From: a virus
Taxonomy: Duplodnaviria > Caudoviricetes
Virus record (IMG/VR): IMGVR_UViG_3300042010_000129
Span: 128,001-192,000 of that record
DNA length: 64,000 nt
Direction: 5' to 3' (one strand)
The first letter of the stretch is position 1, and each line of letters begins with the position of its first letter. The notes below the pieces were generated by a model. It was not told where the DNA came from. It did not search any database and saw only the letters and a list, made by a program, of their open reading frames with translations. Below, piece by piece: positions 1,696 to 42,941 of this stretch. A program made the translations under genes and the position numbers.

Positions 1696-3065
1696 TATTC
1701 GTCTTCCTCTTCTTCGTGTTTTTCGGGCATGTCGTTGATCAACACGTGCGGAATAAACCGCTCGTTCTTCCACGACAACGTTGGGGCATCGAATTCACGA
1801 ATGCACATTGTGGCCGCTGTCGATTCACGCATGGAATTGTAATCGGATGCAACGTCAGGAACCATGAACATTCCGATGATGAAATTGTTCCGGCCTTCGA
1901 CTTTGTGCGGTGCATGGTACGCCTGATAAACGCAGTCGTCGCCTTTGTACGGGCCATCGGTGACGTGAGTTGTTGCACCTTGGGCGTCAAAGATTTCGAC
2001 GTTGCTACTCATGCGACCAACACGTGGTTTTTTCACGTAAGAAACTTTATCGGTTTCGAATTTACGCTCGTTCACGTAGGTCGGAATCACTGGCAAATCG
2101 CCGTAACGCTCTGCGAACGCTGCGTCGGTTTCCAGCAGGCGCCAGATGTAGGCCCAAATACCTTTGTTGCTGGTAAACCAGCGCCACGCCGGTTCGAGCA
2201 TGGTGGTATAGGATGCCCAGTTCTGCCATTCCTTGTACGCCTGCGGGAATGCCGCGACCATTTCTTCCCACGGCACCAACGCGAAAATAACCGTCAGCGG
2301 ATTTTCACCGATGTGGAACGGGTTGGTTTTGTTGTTGAAGTCGTAGTCGATTTCCGTAACGTCTGCGAAAAGGCACACGTTGTTTTCGCCAAGAATTTGC
2401 GCGATAACTTCGGAGGTCGCAGTGTCCTCAAACGAATTGCTTTCGTGAATCACGGCAGCGTTGCCCGGAATCTCGCCCATGTCGCCAATCATGGTTTGCA
2501 GCAGCGGGTAAAAACTATTCAGCTGCAATTCGTTGTCACCGGTCACGGTTTCGCAAACCTGATTCTGGAACGAAACAGATTCGAAAAGCATGGTCGGCGT
2601 GTCGCCGTTGAATTCGTAGATCCCGGTCACTTCCTCAGTCACAGGATCGAACGCAGCGTCGAAGCGACCGTAGATAGCCTGACGGGCAGACCCATGGTCA
2701 CGATAGGAGAACTTCGCGTAGTCGATGAAATACGGATGTTTGCGGAGGAAATCACAGCCCATAAAATACATGAGCGTTTCATTCGATTCGTTGAAGAGTT
2801 TCCCGACAGCCTCAACCAGCATTGCGTATGCACGTTCGAAAGTGACTTCGATTTTCGCGCAGGAACTCAGATGCAGATTGTAAACCGGCATGTGGGAACT
2901 GTGTTCGAGGGGGAACGCAAAATATTCTTTTACGTCCGAGTAGAATTCCGCGTCTGCTTCGGATTCTGGCTTCGGCATTTCGCGGTAGAAGGCTTGAGTC
3001 CACGGCAATTCCTCGACCATCAGTTTGTTCAGGTCGAAGCCGATATTGTGATACGTGCAATGCAT
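1695..3065 (-). CDS. glutathionylspermidine synthase-like ATP-grasp ligase (YgiC/YjfC family)
   Basis: Motifs YGRFD, YEFNGDTPTMLFES, EPAWRWFTSNKGIWAYIW, YVKKPRVGRMSSNV and VYQAY match the GSP_synth family. No CHAP amidase domain. Confidence 0.88.
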   Translation of the reverse strand: MHCTYHNIGFDLNKLMVEELPWTQAFYREMPKPESEADAEFYSDVKEYFAFPLEHSSHMPVYNLHLSSCAKIEVTFERAYAMLVEAVGKLFNESNETLMYFMGCDFLRKHPYFIDYAKFSYRDHGSARQAIYGRFDAAFDPVTEEVTGIYEFNGDTPTMLFESVSFQNQVCETVTGDNELQLNSFYPLLQTMIGDMGEIPGNAAVIHESNSFEDTATSEVIAQILGENNVCLFADVTEIDYDFNNKTNPFHIGENPLTVIFALVPWEEMVAAFPQAYKEWQNWASYTTMLEPAWRWFTSNKGIWAYIWRLLETDAAFAERYGDLPVIPTYVNERKFETDKVSYVKKPRVGRMSSNVEIFDAQGATTHVTDGPYKGDDCVYQAYHAPHKVEGRNNFIIGMFMVPDVASDYNSMRESTAATMCIREFDAPTLSWKNERFIPHVLINDMPEKHEEEEDE

Positions 3066-3095
3066 GAATAACTTCCTTGGAAAAATGCGAAAAGA

Positions 3096-3758
3096 TTACG
3101 AGCCGGAACCGTGGGATGCTGCACGGGCACCGCCACCACCGGACATTACGCCAGACGCACGCGATGCAGCCGCCGCTTTATACGTGGCCGGGGCACTCGA
3201 CGGGCTTGCACGCCACTGCGAAACGCGGTTGTTCATGTTCGAACGATACGACGGGCTAGACGTGACGGCAGCGCGATTATTATTCATCAGCATTGAGGTA
3301 TACGCAGCCGAGCCGCTGTTACGGCATTTGCGGCGATCTTGTTCGTTGCATTGCGTGGTTTGCAACGGCTGGTGCTGCTGCTGATATTGTTGCATACCGC
3401 CGTTTTGGTTCATCATTTTCGCCAACGCGTAACCACCGAGGGCAGCAGCGCCAGCACCGGCCACTAAGGGCCATACAGAATCGCTGCTCTGGCCGTTCGC
3501 TTCTTCACGCACGATATGCAATTGCTTTTCGCCATTCGGGCCGACGCCGTAATACGCATCTTTTACCGATGGATCTTTCGTTTGCAATTCCTTGATCGTG
3601 GCTTGCAAATCTTTTTCGTCTTCTGCGAGTTGTGCGCGGGTTGCTTGACCGGCCTCTTCGTCAACGTAGGCCTGTTCTTCAGCGTAGTCCGGGCTATCGT
3701 CACAGCCAGCGAGAATTACCAAACTTGCTGCTGCCAAAGCAATGACTTTTTTGTTCAC
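3096..3758 (-). CDS. lipoprotein, YgiB/DUF1190-like
   Basis: ILAGC lipobox and Gly/Ser/Ala-rich tail. Lies directly upstream of the YgiC-like gene, as ygiB does in bacteria. Confidence 0.65.
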   Translation of the reverse strand: MNKKVIALAAASLVILAGCDDSPDYAEEQAYVDEEAGQATRAQLAEDEKDLQATIKELQTKDPSVKDAYYGVGPNGEKQLHIVREEANGQSSDSVWPLVAGAGAAALGGYALAKMMNQNGGMQQYQQQHQPLQTTQCNEQDRRKCRNSGSAAYTSMLMNNNRAAVTSSPSYRSNMNNRVSQWRASPSSAPATYKAAAASRASGVMSGGGGARAASHGSGS

Positions 3759-3785
3759 TTCATTTGTTTCCTTAATGGGATGAAT

Positions 3786-3818
3786 GGGTCAGAAAAATCC
3801 TGACCCTTTGTATTTACA
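3786..3818 (-). promoter_or_regulatory. TGTAAATAC motif followed by a 7-bp hairpin upstream of the RBS
   Basis: Minus strand reads TGTAAATAC-AAA-GGGTCAG-GATTTTT-CTGACCC...AAGGAAACAA-ATG. Confidence 0.5.
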
Positions 3819-4433
3819 TTATTCGGTGCGGTCGATGCGCCCTTGCTGCTGTTCGTAATCGCCTTCAGACCACGCCGGGGCATCAGGATCGTTTGCTTCC
3901 TCAACTTCGCGTGCGTGCATTTCTTCGTACATCGCTTTATCAGGATGTGGAATACCCGCGACAACCATTTCCATGCACTGCGGGCAATGGTACATACCCA
4001 TCGGCGCACCACACCACATTTCCGGATGTTCGATACACTCGCCGTTGTTTTTGTACACGCGGAAAACAACGGTGCGGATGTTGCCGGTTTCTTCGTTCTT
4101 CAACACACGGAACGCGGTGTGGAATTCGTCCCAGTCGTATTTGAGCGCATGCGTAAAAGCACCGATCAATTTCATTTGTTCTTCTTGCTGATCAGCGGTG
4201 CCCGACAGACAGAAAACGAAAGTCAGACATTGCGTGGTCGGCTCGCCTTTTCCTTCGATGAAAAAGTTTTTGCCGTCTTTGTAGCGGAAGGGCACGATGC
4301 TGGTCGGCCCGGCGATGGAATCGAAAGAAATGCCGAGTGCTTCACCGTCGAACGGCGGCAGTTCCACATCCCACAAAACATCACGCTGCGTACCGTTGAA
4401 AACTACGACGACTTCACCTTTAACCAACGACAT
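3819..4433 (-). CDS. hypothetical protein with C-terminal CxxC
   Basis: Start moved to MSLVKG (GAGG RBS). Contains YHCPQC and an acidic tail. Confidence 0.65.
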   Translation of the reverse strand: MSLVKGEVVVVFNGTQRDVLWDVELPPFDGEALGISFDSIAGPTSIVPFRYKDGKNFFIEGKGEPTTQCLTFVFCLSGTADQQEEQMKLIGAFTHALKYDWDEFHTAFRVLKNEETGNIRTVVFRVYKNNGECIEHPEMWCGAPMGMYHCPQCMEMVVAGIPHPDKAMYEEMHAREVEEANDPDAPAWSEGDYEQQQGRIDRTE

Positions 4434-4860
4434 AAAACACCTCAGTAAATGATTGAATTGTTCGTGCGACCAAAGCCTGCACAATCGAATCGTCCGACTG
4501 GTAAGGCAAGCACGGATCATCCCACACGTCAGGCAGCGAATAATCGCCGTCGTAATTCGGTTCGAGCCATAGCAGGCCCTCTTCTTCCCGGTGGCCTTGC
4601 GGGCAGCATTTGATAACGCATTCGCGCATTTCCACACCGTACAGACGCATCAACTGGTGTTCGCTAATGTAATGCTGCTGGCCGTCGTTTTTACTGATCA
4701 CATAATTGGGAACGATCAGGAAATGTTTTTCATTCTGCGAACGAATTTGAGGACGACGCGCCATCATTTCCTCGACTGCTGCTTTCCCGTGAGGCGACCG
4801 CATGTAGTCGATTATTTCCTGTTGGTGTGGCGGAAGTTCAACGCCTTTGTGTTTGGTCAT
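4420..4860 (-). CDS. hypothetical phage protein
   Basis: Start MTKHK overlaps the upstream stop (ATGA). Contains VISKNDGQQHYIS..QL.RLYGV. Confidence 0.65.
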   Translation of the reverse strand: MTKHKGVELPPHQQEIIDYMRSPHGKAAVEEMMARRPQIRSQNEKHFLIVPNYVISKNDGQQHYISEHQLMRLYGVEMRECVIKCCPQGHREEEGLLWLEPNYDGDYSLPDVWDDPCLPYQSDDSIVQALVARTIQSFTEVFYVVG

Positions 4861-5528
4861 GGTTTTGGTGCTTCCAAATCCGTCGCCAAAACTTCTACGC
4901 AACCGCCGCCTTGCATTTCCACGCGGGCCATCACCCTTTGCTGTGTGAGACTTCCGCCGATCCACATGTGGCGCACGATGCCGTTACGCCGTGCAGTGCT
5001 GACGTAAACCGGCATGCCTTCCTGCGCAATAAATTGTGGCTTCGGTGGCAAATAATCCGGGCCGTATGCGCGGGGCAGCGACTTGATAGCGGCTTCCAGT
5101 TTTTCGAAGGTCATACAGTTGATATCCGAAACTTCGAGCTTAGGAAGTCCCTGCACGTTTACCGGTTTCGGCATCGCCAGAACTTCTTTGATTTCTGCTT
5201 CGAGTTTCGTGCCGTCAACATCGTGAGCGTGAGAATCGAATTCGACCGCGCTATGGAACCAGTCACCGACTTCAAGCAAACGCACGAACAGCGCACGCAT
5301 TACCCGGTTCTGTGCTTCCAGTTCTGCACTGCTGCGCAGCGAATCTAGGCTAGGAATGGTGCCGGTTTGTTTATGAATTTCCAGCATCATTTCAATCCAC
5401 GAAATGATTTCACTGTTCATGCTGCGGTGCTGGCTGTCCGCGATGGATTTGATTTCTTCACGCATGCCGTCCAAAAGACGCAACACGAATTTATCGGCGG
5501 TACGGCTGCTGTATGTTTTTGCACTCAC
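4857..5528 (-). CDS. Arc-family ribbon-helix-helix regulator, AmrZ(AlgZ)-like N-terminal domain fused to an unknown C-terminal region
   Basis: TYSSRTADKFVLRLLDGMREEIKSIADSQHRSMNSEII closely matches the P. aeruginosa AmrZ N-terminus as I recall it. Confidence 0.85.
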   Translation of the reverse strand: MSAKTYSSRTADKFVLRLLDGMREEIKSIADSQHRSMNSEIISWIEMMLEIHKQTGTIPSLDSLRSSAELEAQNRVMRALFVRLLEVGDWFHSAVEFDSHAHDVDGTKLEAEIKEVLAMPKPVNVQGLPKLEVSDINCMTFEKLEAAIKSLPRAYGPDYLPPKPQFIAQEGMPVYVSTARRNGIVRHMWIGGSLTQQRVMARVEMQGGGCVEVLATDLEAPKP

Positions 5529-5530
5529 GA

Positions 5531-6307
5531 TTATTTCCCCACCAAAGCCATTGCCAGCTGATCATCCAGCGACGGTTTATTGCGCAGATTGATCTTGAAA
5601 TATTTGCGAGTCAGTTGCTCAAGGCTCGCCAGTTCCCGCGCCACCGGATCACTCGAAGTTTGTTGCACGACGCATTCCACTTCTTTGATGGTGGTGATTC
5701 CGTATTTGAAAATGTACGGCAGGAAAAGTTTGTACGGGCCGAAGGTGCAAATCGCTTTCTTGCAAACGGTGCCCGGCACACGTTTTTCCGGCCACGTTTC
5801 TTGCAGAACTTTGATCACGTCGTCAACGGTTTTTACCTGCTTGTATTCATGCAGATAATCCATTTCGATTATGCCTTCGTCCTCATAATGCAAACTGAAC
5901 AGACGATCCCCGTTCAACTTCAGCGAAAACGCTGCATGCCATGGGCTGTCGAAGAAACGCTTTTTGACCGGTCGGCGATTTTTACGCGGAGGCCTCTTTG
6001 CAGGCTGCACCGTATGTACGCCCATTTCGTACAAACGAATTTCAATGGCGTCACACAGAGCGCTAAACGCAGCAAGATCAGCTTTGATTTTGTCTGCGTA
6101 AATCAGAACCTGTTTGAGGATTGTGGCGTCCATTGTGCGCGACGTGTACGTGTGTTCTTTGTCGTTGCAGACGACACGCACCCGGCCATCGAAAGTCAGC
6201 AACGATACGTCGATGTGATGGAACGCCAAGCGATCCCCACGCTGGCGGTGAAAGCCGTACTCAAGCAGCTGCGCGATCAGACCTGCGCGTTTTTCTTCCT
6301 GACTCAT
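5531..6307 (-). CDS. hypothetical protein, paralog of 6304..7149
   Basis: C-terminal block TVDDVIKVL...PGT...TFGPYKLFLPYIFKYGIT aligns with its neighbour. Confidence 0.7.
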   Translation of the reverse strand: MSQEEKRAGLIAQLLEYGFHRQRGDRLAFHHIDVSLLTFDGRVRVVCNDKEHTYTSRTMDATILKQVLIYADKIKADLAAFSALCDAIEIRLYEMGVHTVQPAKRPPRKNRRPVKKRFFDSPWHAAFSLKLNGDRLFSLHYEDEGIIEMDYLHEYKQVKTVDDVIKVLQETWPEKRVPGTVCKKAICTFGPYKLFLPYIFKYGITTIKEVECVVQQTSSDPVARELASLEQLTRKYFKINLRNKPSLDDQLAMALVGK

Positions 6308-7149
6308 GCAAAATCCCCTTGGCCCGACACTTCCAAAGCAGCAGTTTTCTTTTTGATGTACTCGAAGAATTCTTCGGTGGTAATCGCACGGCGCAACTTG
6401 ATTTCCGTGTAATGCATAGGTTCCGGGTAATCCTTCACCAGTTCGTGCAGGTCGGCGTTTTCCGTCGAGAACCGTTGCACGTTTGCCACGCGGTCGATAA
6501 CGCTGGTCACGCCATGGGTGAACATGAACGGCACGAAATCTTCGTGAGATTTGAACGTGATAATGGATTTGCCTTTGAACACAATGCGTTCGTCGGTGCC
6601 CGGCCAGTATTGCGTCTTGGAACCCAGCAGAATTTCGAATACTTCGTCCGCTGTTTCTACGTCGTAATCTTCGAACTGAATGTTCATCACGGTTTTGTTT
6701 CTGGCCCCGGCATACGCCAGATCAAACAGCGGTTCGGCCTTGTACGCATTCGTGTAGAACTTGCACACGTGCGTATCAACGTCGTCACGCTTCCAGAAAC
6801 CGATTACGCCCATTTGTTTTGCCCGGTGCAGGACGTCGGCACGCAGCGCATCGTAGGCCACCACGGACGAAGCACGCAACGCCATTTCTGATTCGATATA
6901 GGCCACGATTTCTTCGGCTGGCGTTTCTTGTGGCACCATCGAAAAGTTTTTGTACGTCACGATATCAACCGTGATTTCGTCGGCTGCAATTCGCACGCAC
7001 GCGTTGTCGTCGGTTTTCAGTTCATAAAGCATGTCGTCATCGTCAGACCATTCGGCGCGGACGAACTTGTTTTTCTTCAGGCACGCAGTGAGCGCAGGAC
7101 GACGGATAGGTTTCAATTTCTTAGCCATTTTTCTTGCACTCACTTGCAC
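6304..7149 (-). CDS. hypothetical protein, paralog of 5531..6307
   Basis: C-terminal block TADEVFEIL...PGT...TFKSHEDFVPFMFTHGVT. Confidence 0.7.
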   Translation of the reverse strand: MQVSARKMAKKLKPIRRPALTACLKKNKFVRAEWSDDDDMLYELKTDDNACVRIAADEITVDIVTYKNFSMVPQETPAEEIVAYIESEMALRASSVVAYDALRADVLHRAKQMGVIGFWKRDDVDTHVCKFYTNAYKAEPLFDLAYAGARNKTVMNIQFEDYDVETADEVFEILLGSKTQYWPGTDERIVFKGKSIITFKSHEDFVPFMFTHGVTSVIDRVANVQRFSTENADLHELVKDYPEPMHYTEIKLRRAITTEEFFEYIKKKTAALEVSGQGDFA

Positions 7150-7724
7150 ATGGTTTTGTAGGAAACGGTAGCGGCGTTTTTGCCGTTATCCATAAAGAAC
7201 GAATACGATTCTGCAATTTCGATACGCGGATTCCAGCGCTTGCCGTCCGACATTTCTTGTTTCTTGCTGGTGCCATCCGGCATGTGAGCCAGAATGGTGA
7301 TATCGGAATCAGCAGGGTCGATACGCGTTTCTTCTGTTTGTTGCTTAGTATCGTAAAACTTCCAACCGAGAACCGTGTAGTAGCGATACGAATAATCGCG
7401 GGTGCCTTTCACCGTCCGTTCACCGACTTTGAAAATGCATTGCGACTGGTGCGAACCGTAGCGATCCCAATCCTGCACAATGTTCGCCCGGTACGTCCAA
7501 CCCACGGCCCCGGCCAGACCAATTAACCCAAGCAACGCCAGCAGAAAATACAGGCGGAAAACCCATTTCGACCAACGCGCTTTGCGGTCGTATTTCGCTT
7601 TGTCTTCGCGATCATTCTGGATGATTTCGTCAAGCGCTTGCTCTGCGCGCTCGGCTGCTTCCGCATTCAGGTTTTCGTTCAGTTGAGTCATGTCTATTTC
7701 TTCCCCAGTAGAATGAGTGTTCAC
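7140..7724 (-). CDS. single-pass membrane protein
   Basis: TM segment LYFLLALLGLIGLAGAVGW. The start may instead be the internal MTQLN. Confidence 0.7.
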   Translation of the reverse strand: MNTHSTGEEIDMTQLNENLNAEAAERAEQALDEIIQNDREDKAKYDRKARWSKWVFRLYFLLALLGLIGLAGAVGWTYRANIVQDWDRYGSHQSQCIFKVGERTVKGTRDYSYRYYTVLGWKFYDTKQQTEETRIDPADSDITILAHMPDGTSKKQEMSDGKRWNPRIEIAESYSFFMDNGKNAATVSYKTMCK

Positions 7725-7733
7725 GTCCGTTCC

Positions 7734-8279
7734 TTAATACTTGTCCGCAAAGAATTCAATCTTTGCTTTGTGTTTTGACGACAGAAACGGATCGTGAGTA
7801 TGCACCAAATCAGTATCCGTAAAAACGTGGGTCTTATCACAAACAAACTGACAGCGATTGGTCGCCAGCACTTCAGTGGAGCGTGCCCAGTTCAACATCA
7901 TGCGCACCCGCGTCAAATTCATCAGCGGCTGCGTGTACGCCACGTGGTAAACATTTCGCTGACCGCGTGGAATATAATTGTGCAGGATCGCTAAGCTGCT
8001 TCCCTCAACCCAAAACAAATTCGCGGGCTGTTCCAAGAAGACTTTTTGCGTCAGCCATTTTTGTTTCAACACAAGAATTTTCTTGCGAAGTTTCAGTGTG
8101 TATTCCACCACTGCCCTATCACGACCGAAGGTAGCCCCATCGACCAACTGTTTCAGTATCATGCTTGTGGAAGCATAGATTTCCCCTTTGCGCGCACAGA
8201 CCGTTGCGATCTTTTTCTGCTCACGTAAACCGTTAAGCTCTACGGTAAATTTCAGTGCGCCTTCGGTGGTATCAAACAT
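7734..8279 (-). CDS. hypothetical protein
   Basis: 181 aa, AGGA RBS. Confidence 0.65.
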   Translation of the reverse strand: MFDTTEGALKFTVELNGLREQKKIATVCARKGEIYASTSMILKQLVDGATFGRDRAVVEYTLKLRKKILVLKQKWLTQKVFLEQPANLFWVEGSSLAILHNYIPRGQRNVYHVAYTQPLMNLTRVRMMLNWARSTEVLATNRCQFVCDKTHVFTDTDLVHTHDPFLSSKHKAKIEFFADKY

Positions 8280-8302
8280 CGGGATTTTCCTTGTACCCTT
8301 GA

Positions 8303-8755
8303 TTATATTTTGCGGCCCACAGTCGTCGGGTCTACGTCATCAGTCAAATACTGATAAGGCCCTTTCGAATAATGAGGCGCAATACGTTTTTTCTTTTTCT
8401 CGGTTTCTTCTTGTGCGATCCGTTCACGCGCCTCCCAGTCGTGCCCCTCTTCGAGAAAAATTCCTTCCTCGGTCACGGTGATCGACGGCGCGCTCGGGAT
8501 ATGTTTTACATCGCTGGTTCGGTAGTTCACCAAAAGGGATGATCCATCATCCTTTTTCTTTTTCTCTTTTGGCAACGAACCATCAGGCAGACGGCCCACT
8601 TGTTTTGCAAGCTTCGCCAATTCTGCCTGTTCCCGCGCTTGCTTTTGTTTTCGCTGCTGTTGCTGTTTGCGGGTCAGCATCGGATTATTCCTCTTTCTGT
8701 TCCTGTTCCGATACAGGCTCTGCGGCAACGGGTTCACCGACTGGAACACTGGCAA
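8303..8755 (-). CDS. basic, charged hypothetical protein
   Basis: K/R/Q-rich. The true start may be the internal MLTRK. Confidence 0.55.
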   Translation of the reverse strand: MPVFQSVNPLPQSLYRNRNRKRNNPMLTRKQQQQRKQKQAREQAELAKLAKQVGRLPDGSLPKEKKKKDDGSSLLVNYRTSDVKHIPSAPSITVTEEGIFLEEGHDWEARERIAQEETEKKKKRIAPHYSKGPYQYLTDDVDPTTVGRKI

Positions 8756-9068
8756 AAGTTTCTGCGATCTTTTCCAGTTCTTCCGGTGCGATATCCTGCG
8801 GCACGCTCAGATTGATGAAACCGATTTGCGGATTTTCTTCACCGATGTAATCAGCGGCGCGCATCAGGATTTCATCCTTCAGGCCACGGCTACCGTATTC
8901 GCGACCGTTGATGGTTTGGGTCAGTTGGCACGACAGAAACATATTCTGCACCACGCCCACACCAGCACTAACAATCGGCCACGGGAATTGAACCTGATTC
9001 AGATCCACGTCGTTACCGAAAATCATCGGTACTTCGGATTCGTTGATTTTTACGATTACATATTTCAT
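8685..9068 (-). CDS. hypothetical protein, KY...SAG family (paralog 2 of 3)
   Basis: MKYVIV...PMIF...IVSAG...GSRGLKDEILM. Confidence 0.65.
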   Translation of the reverse strand: MKYVIVKINESEVPMIFGNDVDLNQVQFPWPIVSAGVGVVQNMFLSCQLTQTINGREYGSRGLKDEILMRAADYIGEENPQIGFINLSVPQDIAPEELEKIAETFASVPVGEPVAAEPVSEQEQKEE

Positions 9069-9078
9069 GATTTTTTAC

Positions 9079-9309
9079 TCAGTGATGAACTGCGTTTTCC
9101 AGAAGATCAGTAATGTCGTCGTAACTGATCAGTGCTTTGTTTTGCTCGATGTTGAATGAGCCTTCGCTAACCGTTGCGACAATTTCGAAATCGCCGGAAA
9201 GTTCGCGTGGAACTGCTGCAACATAGAAGTCGCCGTAGCGGTGGATATCGGTGGCGCGGACAGCAACAAAGCTGTCTTTGTTTCGTGAGGCATAAACCCG
9301 AAGGGACAT
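9079..9309 (-). CDS. hypothetical protein
   Basis: 76 aa, GGAG RBS. Confidence 0.6.
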   Translation of the reverse strand: MSLRVYASRNKDSFVAVRATDIHRYGDFYVAAVPRELSGDFEIVATVSEGSFNIEQNKALISYDDITDLLENAVHH

Positions 9310-9387
9310 AGCAGTTTCTCCAAACTAGATCGTGTCATAATTTCCCCTTTGTTGTGGCTCGGTGAATGGCCCGTGCCGAATGTTGTG

Positions 9388-9840
9388 TTACTTGGCTTTC
9401 GCTTTTTTGATTTTAGGCAACGGCGCGTGCGTGTCGCTGATCCGGGTGTACAAATTCCCCTTGGCCGTGCGCTCACAAATAAATTCGTTGTGGTCGCGTA
9501 CCCACTGCGCAAACGCAGAATGCCAAGCACTGGAAATTTTCAGAGACGATAGGCCTTTGTGCGAATGCAGACGGATCATCAAATCGTACAGGTTAAACCG
9601 TATACCGATTTTCAGTTTGCGTGCATACGGAACCAGCACGTCCCACGTCAGGCTGGCAGTATCAACCGGCTGGCGTTCCTCTTCGCAACATACGCTCAGG
9701 TGCTGACGCAAAATGCACTCGACAACATGTTCCAAAGAACGCCCGGAACTTTCCGCACATTCGTGAAGCGAACGTACCACACGCGGATCAAGATCCAACG
9801 ACAGATTTACCGACGTTAATTCCATTTCTTGCCCACTCAT
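9388..9840 (-). CDS. ribbon-helix-helix plus DUF1413-like DNA-binding protein
   Basis: N-terminal LDLDPRVVRSLHECAESSGRSLEHVVECILRQHL fits an RHH. C-terminal FNLYDLM...FAQWV...NLY resembles DUF1413. Confidence 0.5.
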   Translation of the reverse strand: MSGQEMELTSVNLSLDLDPRVVRSLHECAESSGRSLEHVVECILRQHLSVCCEEERQPVDTASLTWDVLVPYARKLKIGIRFNLYDLMIRLHSHKGLSSLKISSAWHSAFAQWVRDHNEFICERTAKGNLYTRISDTHAPLPKIKKAKAK

Positions 9841-9933
9841 TTTTATTGCCCCGTTTTTACAGCTGATCCCACTGCGCGAACAGCCGATCCATTTCACCGT
9901 TGTGGTTGCCCATGGGCACAGCGGCGCGTTGTT

Positions 9934-10125
9934 TTACGGTTCCTGCTGCCAATCGGCTTCGATCAGCTGCACTTTGAAGTTGCGCGCCAGTATTCGGCTT
10001 TCCGCCAAGGTGAATTGTCGGGCGCGTAGTCTGCTTTTGCATGTGTAAACCTTGTCTTCGGTAATCTTGAAAATGTAGGAGCCTTCTGAAAGCCTCGCTA
10101 CATATTTACAGTTTTTGTTGTCCAT
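9934..10125 (-). CDS. hypothetical protein
   Basis: 63 aa, in tandem with neighbours. Confidence 0.5.
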   Translation of the reverse strand: MDNKNCKYVARLSEGSYIFKITEDKVYTCKSRLRARQFTLAESRILARNFKVQLIEADWQQEP

Positions 10126-10384
10126 CTTTGCGCACCTTATGTGCCCACAACAACAGCCCCAGCAACGCCACTTGACCGGCCACTGAAATAATCTGAATCA
10201 GCACGACCAGCACACGCTGCGTTGAACCTGCAATCGACAGATCGTAGGCCTTGCCGAAAAAGAAATTGCACAGGCCCAAGCACACAACCATGATCGCAAT
10301 TGCCAGACGGTTAGACCAGATGGCCCTCGCTTTGCCCTGACGTTCCTTTTCGCGCCGCTTGAGTTCGCGATTTAAATCAACCAT
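10106..10384 (-). CDS. two-TM membrane protein
   Basis: Two hydrophobic segments. Confidence 0.65.
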   Translation of the reverse strand: MVDLNRELKRREKERQGKARAIWSNRLAIAIMVVCLGLCNFFFGKAYDLSIAGSTQRVLVVLIQIISVAGQVALLGLLLWAHKVRKDGQQKL

Positions 10385-11042
10385 TCTTCAGCGCCTCGAT
10401 GCATGTGATACGTGCGTCAAGTGTGCGCTGCCAAACGTATTCCCCGGCCTGCGTGTGCATCACTGCGCCTTTCAGAAAAGCGATTTGATTCGGGATAGCA
10501 TCAACCGGAATGACGCCCATTTCTTCGCACAGGTCAAACATCACATATTGAATGCAGTGCGGTTCCAAACTTTCCATCAGGTCAGCATCGCGCAGGCAGC
10601 ATTCCAAAATGCTCGCCGGTTCAATCGGGAACGCCATGTCGCGGAATTCCGTGCAGCGAATTGCACGTTCGATAATTCCGATTCCAGCCGGGCCGAAATA
10701 ATCATGCACGCATTCAGCGCCACGCAAACCTTTCACCGCGATTTCGATATTGTTGATATCCGGGCCTTTGCCGGTGTGGCCGAAATCGTGAAACAGTGCA
10801 GCGACAATTCCGCGTGCGTAATCAGCCTTCAGGCGCCAGCCGCTGGCCGTCATCAGTTCCACGAAACGCCACGCTACACGGATGCAGTGATCGGGGTTGT
10901 GGTACGCATTGCCGGTTTCGAATTGCGGTTCCTGCACATAACGATAAATCGTGGACAGACCGTATTCTTCGACCAGCGCTTCGAACATCGACAGCCGATA
11001 CATCGCGGCAATGTCGAGTTGCATATTCGGAATGAGGCTCAT
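10377..11042 (-). CDS. HD-domain phosphohydrolase with class I PDE-like motifs
   Basis: AYHNPDH...AALFHDFGH...NN...RDADL. Start moved to MSLIPN. Confidence 0.8.
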   Translation of the reverse strand: MSLIPNMQLDIAAMYRLSMFEALVEEYGLSTIYRYVQEPQFETGNAYHNPDHCIRVAWRFVELMTASGWRLKADYARGIVAALFHDFGHTGKGPDINNIEIAVKGLRGAECVHDYFGPAGIGIIERAIRCTEFRDMAFPIEPASILECCLRDADLMESLEPHCIQYVMFDLCEEMGVIPVDAIPNQIAFLKGAVMHTQAGEYVWQRTLDARITCIEALKNG

Positions 11043-11476
11043 GGGAAAACTCCGATATTTGTGAGGATACCAAATACACCGCCCAGCGTTCCGCCCAGCA
11101 CCATGTAACCAACAGAACGCCAGCCGTGGATTTCTTGCAGCGCCAATTTCCAGCGGTATTCCTGCGTCATGAAAAACCCGTCTTCTACGTCTGGCAGGCA
11201 ACCGGTTTTCGTGAAGTGCTGCAACAGTGGAAGCATGCGCTTAACCTGCCCTTGGGTCAGATGCATGCGCGTGTCGCTGTGCAGGTCGAGGCCTTCAGGA
11301 AACTCGAAAGGCACCCAACCTTTGCCCGCCACACAATGGCGCGTGTTCGATTCGTTAACGCCGAACCAGATAGCGCCCTCGGTTGCGAGACTGCTTTCCT
11401 GCAACGAACATTTAACGCCGTAGCGGTCGTCAAATTCCATCCGGGCCAAACCACGCTCTGTATTTCGTGCAATCAT
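11039..11476 (-). CDS. conserved phage hypothetical protein with C-terminal TM
   Basis: F.D.YG..CSLQ.SSLA...IW.G...TRMHLT..QV..LP.LQ.F..TG, a pattern I recognise as a recurrent phage family. Confidence 0.7.
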   Translation of the reverse strand: MIARNTERGLARMEFDDRYGVKCSLQESSLATEGAIWFGVNESNTRHCVAGKGWVPFEFPEGLDLHSDTRMHLTQGQVKRMLPLLQHFTKTGCLPDVEDGFFMTQEYRWKLALQEIHGWRSVGYMVLGGTLGGVFGILTNIGVFP

Positions 11477-11742
11477 TTTTCGTTCCCTGTATTCAAAACT
11501 TTCGGATCGACACTTTCGAAAGGATTCGGTGACGTACTATCAACAATATCGACTGCGATTCGTGCGCAGGCATTGCCGTCGAGGATCTTGATGATTTCCG
11601 TCGAGTAGGCCCGGCGTGCTTTGTTCCAGCCTTCCTGCCATTCCTTACGCGGCACATCGTCAAACGCCTGCGGATAAACACCGAGATTAATGCTCAGGAT
11701 TTTGTGCAGCGTTTCTGCCAACTGCTTTTCAACCTCAGTCAT
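11473..11742 (-). CDS. hypothetical protein
   Basis: ATGA coupling. Contains W.EGWN.A. Confidence 0.6.
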   Translation of the reverse strand: MTEVEKQLAETLHKILSINLGVYPQAFDDVPRKEWQEGWNKARRAYSTEIIKILDGNACARIAVDIVDSTSPNPFESVDPKVLNTGNEK

Positions 11743-15502: not shown

Positions 15503-15518
15503 CTTTCATTGTCCCTAA
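15500..15518 (-). repeat. 19-nt leader repeat TTAGGGACAATGAAAGATG, copy 1
   Basis: Identical to 42884..42902. Confidence 0.85.
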
Positions 15519-15520
15519 GT

Positions 15521-15542
15521 GGGATGCCCCGAAGGGCACCCC
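15521..15542 (-). terminator. GC-rich UUCG hairpin (weak terminator or 5' stabiliser)
   Basis: GGGGTGCCC-TTCG-GGGCATCCC, with only ACTT after it. Confidence 0.55.
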
Positions 15543-15548
15543 GTGCTT

Positions 15549-17043: not shown

Positions 17044-17091
17044 GGTAGGGCCTGCCCGGATTGGACAAGCATCCTACCCCTAGTATTTACA
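17044..17091 (-). promoter_or_regulatory. TGTAAATAC motif followed by a hairpin upstream of the RBS
   Basis: TGTAAATAC-TAG-GGGTAGG ATGCTTG TCCAATC CGGGCA GGC CCTACC-TTTAGAGGA. Confidence 0.5.
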
Positions 17092-25072: not shown

Positions 25073-25092
25073 TGGGTGTTTCTCCTAAAGGC

Positions 25093-25115
25093 GGGGGCCG
25101 CGTTGGCATGCCCCC
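25093..25115 (-). promoter_or_regulatory. GC hairpin directly before the RBS
   Basis: GGGGGC ATGC CAAC GCG GCCCCC-GCCTTT-AGGAG. Confidence 0.5.
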
Positions 25116-25126
25116 TGTTCGGTATT

Positions 25127-42886: not shown

Positions 42887-42902
42887 CTTTCATTGTCCCT
42901 AA
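42884..42902 (-). repeat. 19-nt leader repeat TTAGGGACAATGAAAGATG, copy 2
   Basis: Identical to 15500..15518. Confidence 0.85.
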
Positions 42903-42909
42903 AGTAAGT

Positions 42910-42932
42910 GGGCCACTCGAAAAGAATGGCCC
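42910..42932 (-). terminator. hairpin (weak terminator or stabiliser)
   Basis: GGGCCATTC-TTTTC-GAGTGGCCC followed by ACTTACTTT. Confidence 0.55.
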
Positions 42933-42941
42933 TTGTGGAAA

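Follow-up and report, generated by a model that had tools for sequence, protein, structure and literature searches.

The stretch of DNA analysed here (64,000 nucleotides, in the following the window) carries at positions 4857-5528 on the minus strand a gene for a 223 aa ribbon-helix-helix (RHH) protein of a Lu11/HRDY3-like jumbo phage. The gene is real and conserved. Its product belongs to the published class of phage AmrZ homologues, of which it is a longer variant with three modules. By analogy with this class, the protein may be a transcription factor that acts on host promoters controlled by AmrZ, a proposal for and against which the arguments appear to us about evenly balanced. Since phage AmrZ homologues that act on the host have already been published (bioRxiv 10.1101/673095; PMC13650114), the idea is not new. 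Phage-encoded copies of host master regulators are a documented route to switch off defence and to remodel the cell surface. To this, the 223 aa family adds a longer form composed of three modules, which so far comprises proteins from Lu11/HRDY3-like jumbo phages and from uncultured contigs, the longest of them >300 kb, that originate from plant, rhizosphere, soil and food samples.

The reading frame consists of 223 codons followed by a TGA stop and begins with GTG at 5526-5528. A Shine-Dalgarno-like GGGGA can be read directly at 5536..5540 (minus strand), 7 nt ahead of this GTG. In the alignment, the relatives open with M-S-A-K-T-Y-S-S-R at the same position as the 223 aa protein, so that the start can be regarded as sound. 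The stop codon of the upstream gene is located 2 nt before the GTG. At the other end, the TGA overlaps within ATGA at 4857-4860 with the ATG (4858-4860) of a downstream gene for 146 aa (4420..4860, minus strand), i.e. the two genes are translationally coupled. Such tight overlaps are the rule in this gene block, where intergenic space is very small. The 146 aa protein matches only phrog_7644 (function unknown), and searches with PADLOC, Pfam and NCBIfam yielded no match to a toxin or defence family. Its gene is kept in the uncultured relatives L002 and L003 and is missing from Pseudomonas phage HRDY3. Two upstream genes for 258 and 281 aa (5531-6307 and 6304-7149, both on the minus strand) precede the RHH gene in every relative examined and are retained in HRDY3, L002 and L003. 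With 28% identity over 92 residues (E 5e-7), they represent remote paralogues of each other, and neither of them matches a known family. A few genes upstream of the RHH gene, a 169 aa protein encoded at 9388-9897 (minus strand) and conserved in HRDY3, L002 and L003 may be a second RHH regulator: its residues 35-66 resemble a FitA-like RHH domain, though weakly and below the cutoff (PF22513, E 7e-4).

The window is part of a 312-kb uncultured jumbo phage, and an identical RHH protein is encoded on a contig of 311,964 bp. Minus-strand open reading frames alone cover 94.5% of the window, and no tRNA genes were found in it. It is syntenic with Pseudomonas phage HRDY3 (313 kb): 17 of 21 neighbouring proteins, among them the product of a glutathionylspermidine-synthase-like gene downstream, have a counterpart there, mostly in the same order and with 33-72% identity. 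A 672 aa protein encoded elsewhere in the window is closest to those of HRDY3 (60%), Lu11 (57%) and pf16 (54%), all of them Pseudomonas phages. Lu11 and PaBG have been placed in one jumbo-phage group (PMC7412058). The pseudomonad host proposed in the sequence-only reading is thus independently backed by the nearest cultured phages, HRDY3, Lu11 and pf16, all of which infect Pseudomonas; judged from these relatives, such a host is likely. A megablast search with 6 kb of the window against the phage collection gave no match. Several studies of food, plant, rhizosphere and soil samples yielded metagenomes with near-identical DNA, and among the public runs that contain it there is no RNA run. One public run, labelled as a single organism and not as a metagenome, contains 87% of the words sampled from 3800-7200 and might point to a host or carrier strain. 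For the RHH protein itself, a word-indexed search detected 18 full-length relatives with 46-100% identity on contigs that reach 316 kb where their length is known. An exhaustive comparison with 1.8 billion cluster representatives brought in another eight, which are more distant (194-214 aa) and include one identical to the HRDY3 protein. In total, the family comprises about 26 full-length relatives, and in the uncultured relatives L002 and L003 the neighbours of the RHH gene are kept as well.

The N-terminal RHH head (residues 1-50; 5379..5528, minus strand) most probably represents a domain of the AmrZ subfamily. Among all PDB chains searched with phmmer, AmrZ (3QOQ) is the sole match (E 3.4e-13, residues 3-49). 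The Pfam family Arc (PF03869) is hit by residues 8-46 (E 6.5e-14, 52 bits against a cutoff of 20.4), and PHROG families of Arc-like regulators match the protein at E 2e-14. The head aligns without gaps to the entire RHH domain of 3QOQ. The phmmer alignment contains 30 identical residues among the 42 between T5 and E46, in agreement with the figure given in the sequence-only reading, and the two stretches singled out there, TYSSRTADKFV and HRSMNSEII, are both identical to AmrZ. Over the ungapped 44-residue core, identity amounts to 30/44 or 68%. An AmrZ-type RHH protein is indeed encoded on a phage, as the 3QOQ match and the synteny with HRDY3 indicate.

The crystal structure of AmrZ identified K18, V20 and R22 as base readers of the 5'-GGC half-site, with S13, R14, R28 and the beginning of helix 2 contacting the DNA as well (PMC3325190). 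With an offset of five, these amino acids correspond to K13, V15 and R17, to S8 and R9 and to R23 of the phage protein, where all of them are present, and the N-terminus of AmrZ helix 2, HRSMNS (H34-S39), is kept, too. None of these positions varies among the 18 closest relatives. In the whole family of 26, no member deviates at K13, F14, R17, R23 or R35-S39, and at least 90% of the members retain S8, R9, V15 and H34. Differences from AmrZ concern the turn between strand and helix, where the closer subclade has Leu in place of the near-universal Pro of R-L-P-E/D-G, and helix 2 (W44). In addition, the N-terminal arm of AmrZ comprises 10 residues before T-Y-S-S compared to four in the phage protein. 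In the monomer AlphaFold model, the head has a pLDDT of 36-53 and the strand is drawn as a helix, as expected for an obligate dimer like RHH; because this model of the head is unreliable, no argument is based on it.

How special is the similarity to AmrZ? Over the 44-residue core, AmrZ-type proteins share on average 65% of the residues with the phage head, compared to 61% for barrel-type and for other RHH proteins, and the maximum is 68% in all three classes alike. Furthermore, the K-V-R triad is found in 232 of the 253 other RHH cores compared. A pattern scan revealed genomic relatives mostly in Pseudomonas and Atopomonas and also in Brucella and Rhizobiales. The equal ceiling of 68% across the classes argues for a head that belongs to a large AmrZ-like subfamily and is not a fresh copy of a host gene. 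Judged from these comparisons, it is a long-standing member of this subfamily and no recent host-gene capture, so that the term 'mimic', which had been used for the protein, is too strong. A separate case is provided by Pseudomonas phage Y12 (UNVERIFIED record), where a 108 aa open reading frame (L020:1174-1500) shows the AmrZ layout in full, from the N-terminal arm to the helical C-terminal domain. It could be a very recent host-gene capture or host DNA inside an unverified record.

The C-terminal part of the protein is composed of two modules and a linker. The helical module (residues 57-120; 5169..5360, minus strand) was delimited by family alignments, and its helices are predicted with moderate confidence. 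G88, E96 and E112 are invariant and W90, S93, G106 and L117 nearly so; Pfam has no match for this module. It is followed by a variable linker (residues 121-160; 5049..5168, minus strand), which is shortened or deleted in the distant relatives and has a mean pLDDT of about 40-52 with long runs <50. The last module is a confidently predicted Tudor/SH3-like beta-barrel (residues 161-223; 4860..5048, minus strand; pLDDT 82-90 in two AlphaFold models). Its full length can be aligned with Tudor, chromo and KOW domains, the best being the Tudor domain 6hq9 (Z 8.6, rmsd 1.9 over 55 residues).

That the remaining ~170 aa are unlike AmrZ had been proposed from the letters alone, and the searches bear this out: BLAST of the phage tail against the AmrZ tail yielded nothing at E<=100, and a profile-profile comparison (hhalign) of the middle module with the helical C-terminal domain shared by 41 AmrZ-type proteins in the match lists (S-P-E-L-S ... 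E-L-L-x-R-F-R-x-L ... Q-Q-N-A-L) gave a probability of 0.2%. A BLAST alignment to AmrZ that extended to residue 84 found no support in the profile comparison and was rejected.

By contrast, the designation 'foreign C-terminal extension' holds with regard to AmrZ and fails with regard to the barrel, which recurs in other AmrZ-like RHH proteins including that of PaBG. This recurrence was established by searching a barrel profile against the tails of 241 RHH proteins, with shuffled and reversed tails as decoys. RHH heads had been removed, because padding could let the profile drift into the RHH end. After five rounds of iteration, 58 of the 241 tails and none of the 482 decoys were matched at E<1e-3. 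Among the matches are the PaBG AmrZ homologue (E 6e-12), the HRDY3 protein (E 4.6e-15) and many proteins of 113-205 aa with RHH heads. A single-pass alignment (hhalign) against PaBG alone is weak (E 0.025, probability 2%), and it is the iterated profile that carries the link between the two barrels. According to this profile, the barrel is not peculiar to the 223 aa family but common to many AmrZ-like RHH proteins. With residues 57-223 alone as the query, every match, among proteins of 122-391 aa, was an Arc-fused member of this family, i.e. it is the helical middle module that sets the family apart. A two-copy complex prediction for residues 57-223 gave a median of 0.40 against a mark of 0.42, with controls at 0.00, and allows no verdict either way.

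AmrZ-type proteins carried by phages and plasmids of Pseudomonas have been studied. Five of six mobile homologues complemented an amrZ deletion in PA14, and three, among them the PaBG protein, repressed production of the Csy complex and hence CRISPR-Cas (bioRxiv 10.1101/673095). Gp53 of PhiPA1019 binds the promoters of fleQ, pslA, amrZ and ftsZ (PMC13650114). Like the 223 aa protein, the PaBG protein (gp184/'algZ') and those of phi3 and JBD68 as well as Gp53 are phage-carried and have an AmrZ-type RHH head with intact DNA-contact residues. The mobile homologues tested in these two studies, however, do not include a member of the 223 aa family. The PaBG protein (138 aa) also ends in a barrel, but the 223 aa protein has a conserved helical module and a variable linker between head and barrel, and the PaBG gene is not syntenic with the RHH gene described here. 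The phi3 protein (81 aa) has a short coiled coil instead of a barrel. AmrZ (AlgZ) of P. aeruginosa itself (3QOQ) makes the same RHH contacts as predicted for the phage head, with the 68% core identity given above, but is a chromosomal protein of 108 aa, in contrast to the 223 aa protein on a 312-kb phage contig, which lacks the helical tetramerisation domain of AmrZ with its E-L-L-x-R-F-R-x-L motif. XDJ14992 of HRDY3 is homologous throughout (38% identity, 98% of the length aligned) and has the same three modules and the same place in the syntenic block. Its R-L-P-D-G turn is the canonical one, most of the linker is missing, no 146 aa gene follows, and the annotation is just that of an Arc-like DNA-binding domain protein. 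HRDY3 is a cultured relative in which the RHH gene could be studied directly.

Arc and Mnt of P22 belong to the same Pfam family as the phage head, and neither has a barrel. Arc reads DNA with Q9/N11/R13 instead of the K/V/R triad of the phage protein, and in Mnt, a C-terminal assembly domain has been added to the RHH head. Both act on P22's own immI operators.

If the 223 aa protein is a regulator of host AmrZ-controlled promoters, the following mechanism can be envisaged. [quoted passage not shown] Because K13, V15 and R17 match AmrZ K18, V20 and R22, 5'-GGC-type half-sites should be read as by AmrZ. Binding to AmrZ-type sites is plausible by analogy. During infection, the protein would then occupy host promoters that are normally under AmrZ control, i.e. 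those for motility, exopolysaccharide, c-di-GMP and possibly CRISPR-Cas, in analogy to PaBG, phi3, JBD68 and Gp53, and might repress or rewire these host genes to the phage's benefit. Helical module and Tudor-like barrel most likely stand in for the tetramerisation domain of AmrZ and could provide higher-order assembly or contact with a partner protein. GGC half-sites are too short for target prediction. In the 64-kb window, amrZ1-type sites (GGCWWWWNGCC) occur four times compared to 2.5 expected and are not enriched, which is a weak test and, with this weight, gives no sign of a phage-borne operator set. Against the proposal count that many other RHH proteins are as close to the head as AmrZ is, that the closer subclade has the Leu-for-Pro turn and the first 5 residues of the AmrZ arm are missing, and that related RHH proteins such as TprA of PAPI-1, to which NCBIfam reports a weak match, regulate their own element.

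The last point leads to the main rival explanation, according to which the protein regulates the phage's own genes by temporal control or autoregulation, as Arc and Mnt in P22 and TprA in PAPI-1 do, without a designed effect on the AmrZ regulon. This is the classic role of RHH proteins from phages and mobile elements, and in addition to the TprA match, the fixed place of the gene in a long co-directional block across all relatives and the second, weak RHH protein in the same block are in line with it. Moreover, the Lu11/PaBG group has been reported to encode its own sigma-70-type factor (PMC7412058), so that such a phage plausibly needs repressors or activators of its own. However, amrZ1-type sites are not enriched in the window, scans of 3000-11500 for sigma-70 promoters and terminators, equally a weak test, remained at or below chance and revealed no promoter-like site near the gene, and the block leaves very little intergenic space. 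Furthermore, the phage homologues tested so far act on host promoters. Altogether, self-regulation is a possible but rather unlikely explanation. Still more doubtful is the second suggestion of the sequence-only reading that the protein poisons AmrZ by forming mixed dimers. The residues assigned to the RHH core by analogy with Arc-type folds (F14, L18, M22, I26, M37, I41 and I42) are mostly identical to AmrZ or conservatively changed, which would permit such dimers. RHH dimers, though, fold together during synthesis, which favours homodimers, and the family deviates from AmrZ by Leu for Pro in the turn between strand and helix and by W44 in helix 2, so that we consider poisoning quite improbable.

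Two other alternatives concern the tail. The barrel might bind host RNA polymerase at the beta subunit like the Tudor-like domains of CarD/CdnL, Mfd and UvrD, and the protein might tether or trap polymerase at GGC-type operators. Foldseek retrieved nothing from PDB or BFVD at E<=0.001, but its top single-domain matches comprise the C-terminal domain of UvrD in complex with the RNA polymerase lobe (7egs_B, E 0.049, target TM 0.70, rmsd 2.6, 22% identity) as well as the UvrD1 Tudor domain, CdnL, Mfd and NusG KOW, and two ESM Atlas searches repeatedly returned CarD_TRCF_RID clusters (query TM 0.3-0.4); the Atlas search by features yielded no usable match. However, every Foldseek E-value exceeds 0.01, and the highest Z-scores belong to eukaryotic Tudor domains, which suggests that the barrel may be just a common small fold. 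At the sequence level, 16 barrels had no Pfam match at E<=5, the CarD/TRCF domain PF02559 included, and a profile search of PDB sequences was empty. Taken together, the barrel is best read as a widespread small fold that hints weakly at RNA polymerase binding, and tethering of polymerase by it appears improbable. We give equally little credence to a bolder version, a new class of phage transcription factors whose head sits on host GGC operators, whose barrel grips the RNA polymerase beta lobe and whose helical module sets the geometry. If polymerase binding were true, the phage would trap or recruit host polymerase at AmrZ-controlled promoters, beyond competing with AmrZ.

Finally, the RHH protein could be the antitoxin of a toxin-antitoxin pair with the 146 aa gene (4420-4860) as toxin. 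An N-terminal RHH domain is found in many type II antitoxins, and the ATGA overlap and the retention of the 146 aa partner in L002 and L003 would fit. But HRDY3 keeps the RHH gene without the 146 aa gene, the overlap is of a kind found throughout the block, the putative toxin is without PADLOC, Pfam or NCBIfam match, and the tail ends in a folded barrel and not in a disordered peptide that could wrap around a toxin. An antitoxin role is therefore very hard to credit, and a type II antitoxin of the ParD/CcdA/FitA type was rejected, since an adjacent toxin gene is not obligatory (HRDY3) and a match to a toxin family is lacking. The barrel is of wider interest: as it links many AmrZ-like RHH proteins including that of PaBG, its role is a question for the entire class.

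Besides the RHH gene, the window contains a recurrent element. If one mismatch is tolerated, 21 copies of TGTAAATAC are counted on the minus strand (at 3810-3818, 17083-17091 and other positions) compared to nine expected, and none of 100 shuffles reaches 21. Both exact copies of TGTAAATAC sit between genes, directly ahead of a GC-rich hairpin and a ribosome-binding site. Several short intergenic gaps, at 15503-15548, 25073-25126 and 42887-42941 (minus strand), are built in a common order, a GC-rich hairpin followed by a ribosome-binding sequence of the C-T-T-T-A-G-G-x-A type and the start codon. Hairpin-type intergenic gaps of this kind may be RNA processing or stability elements.
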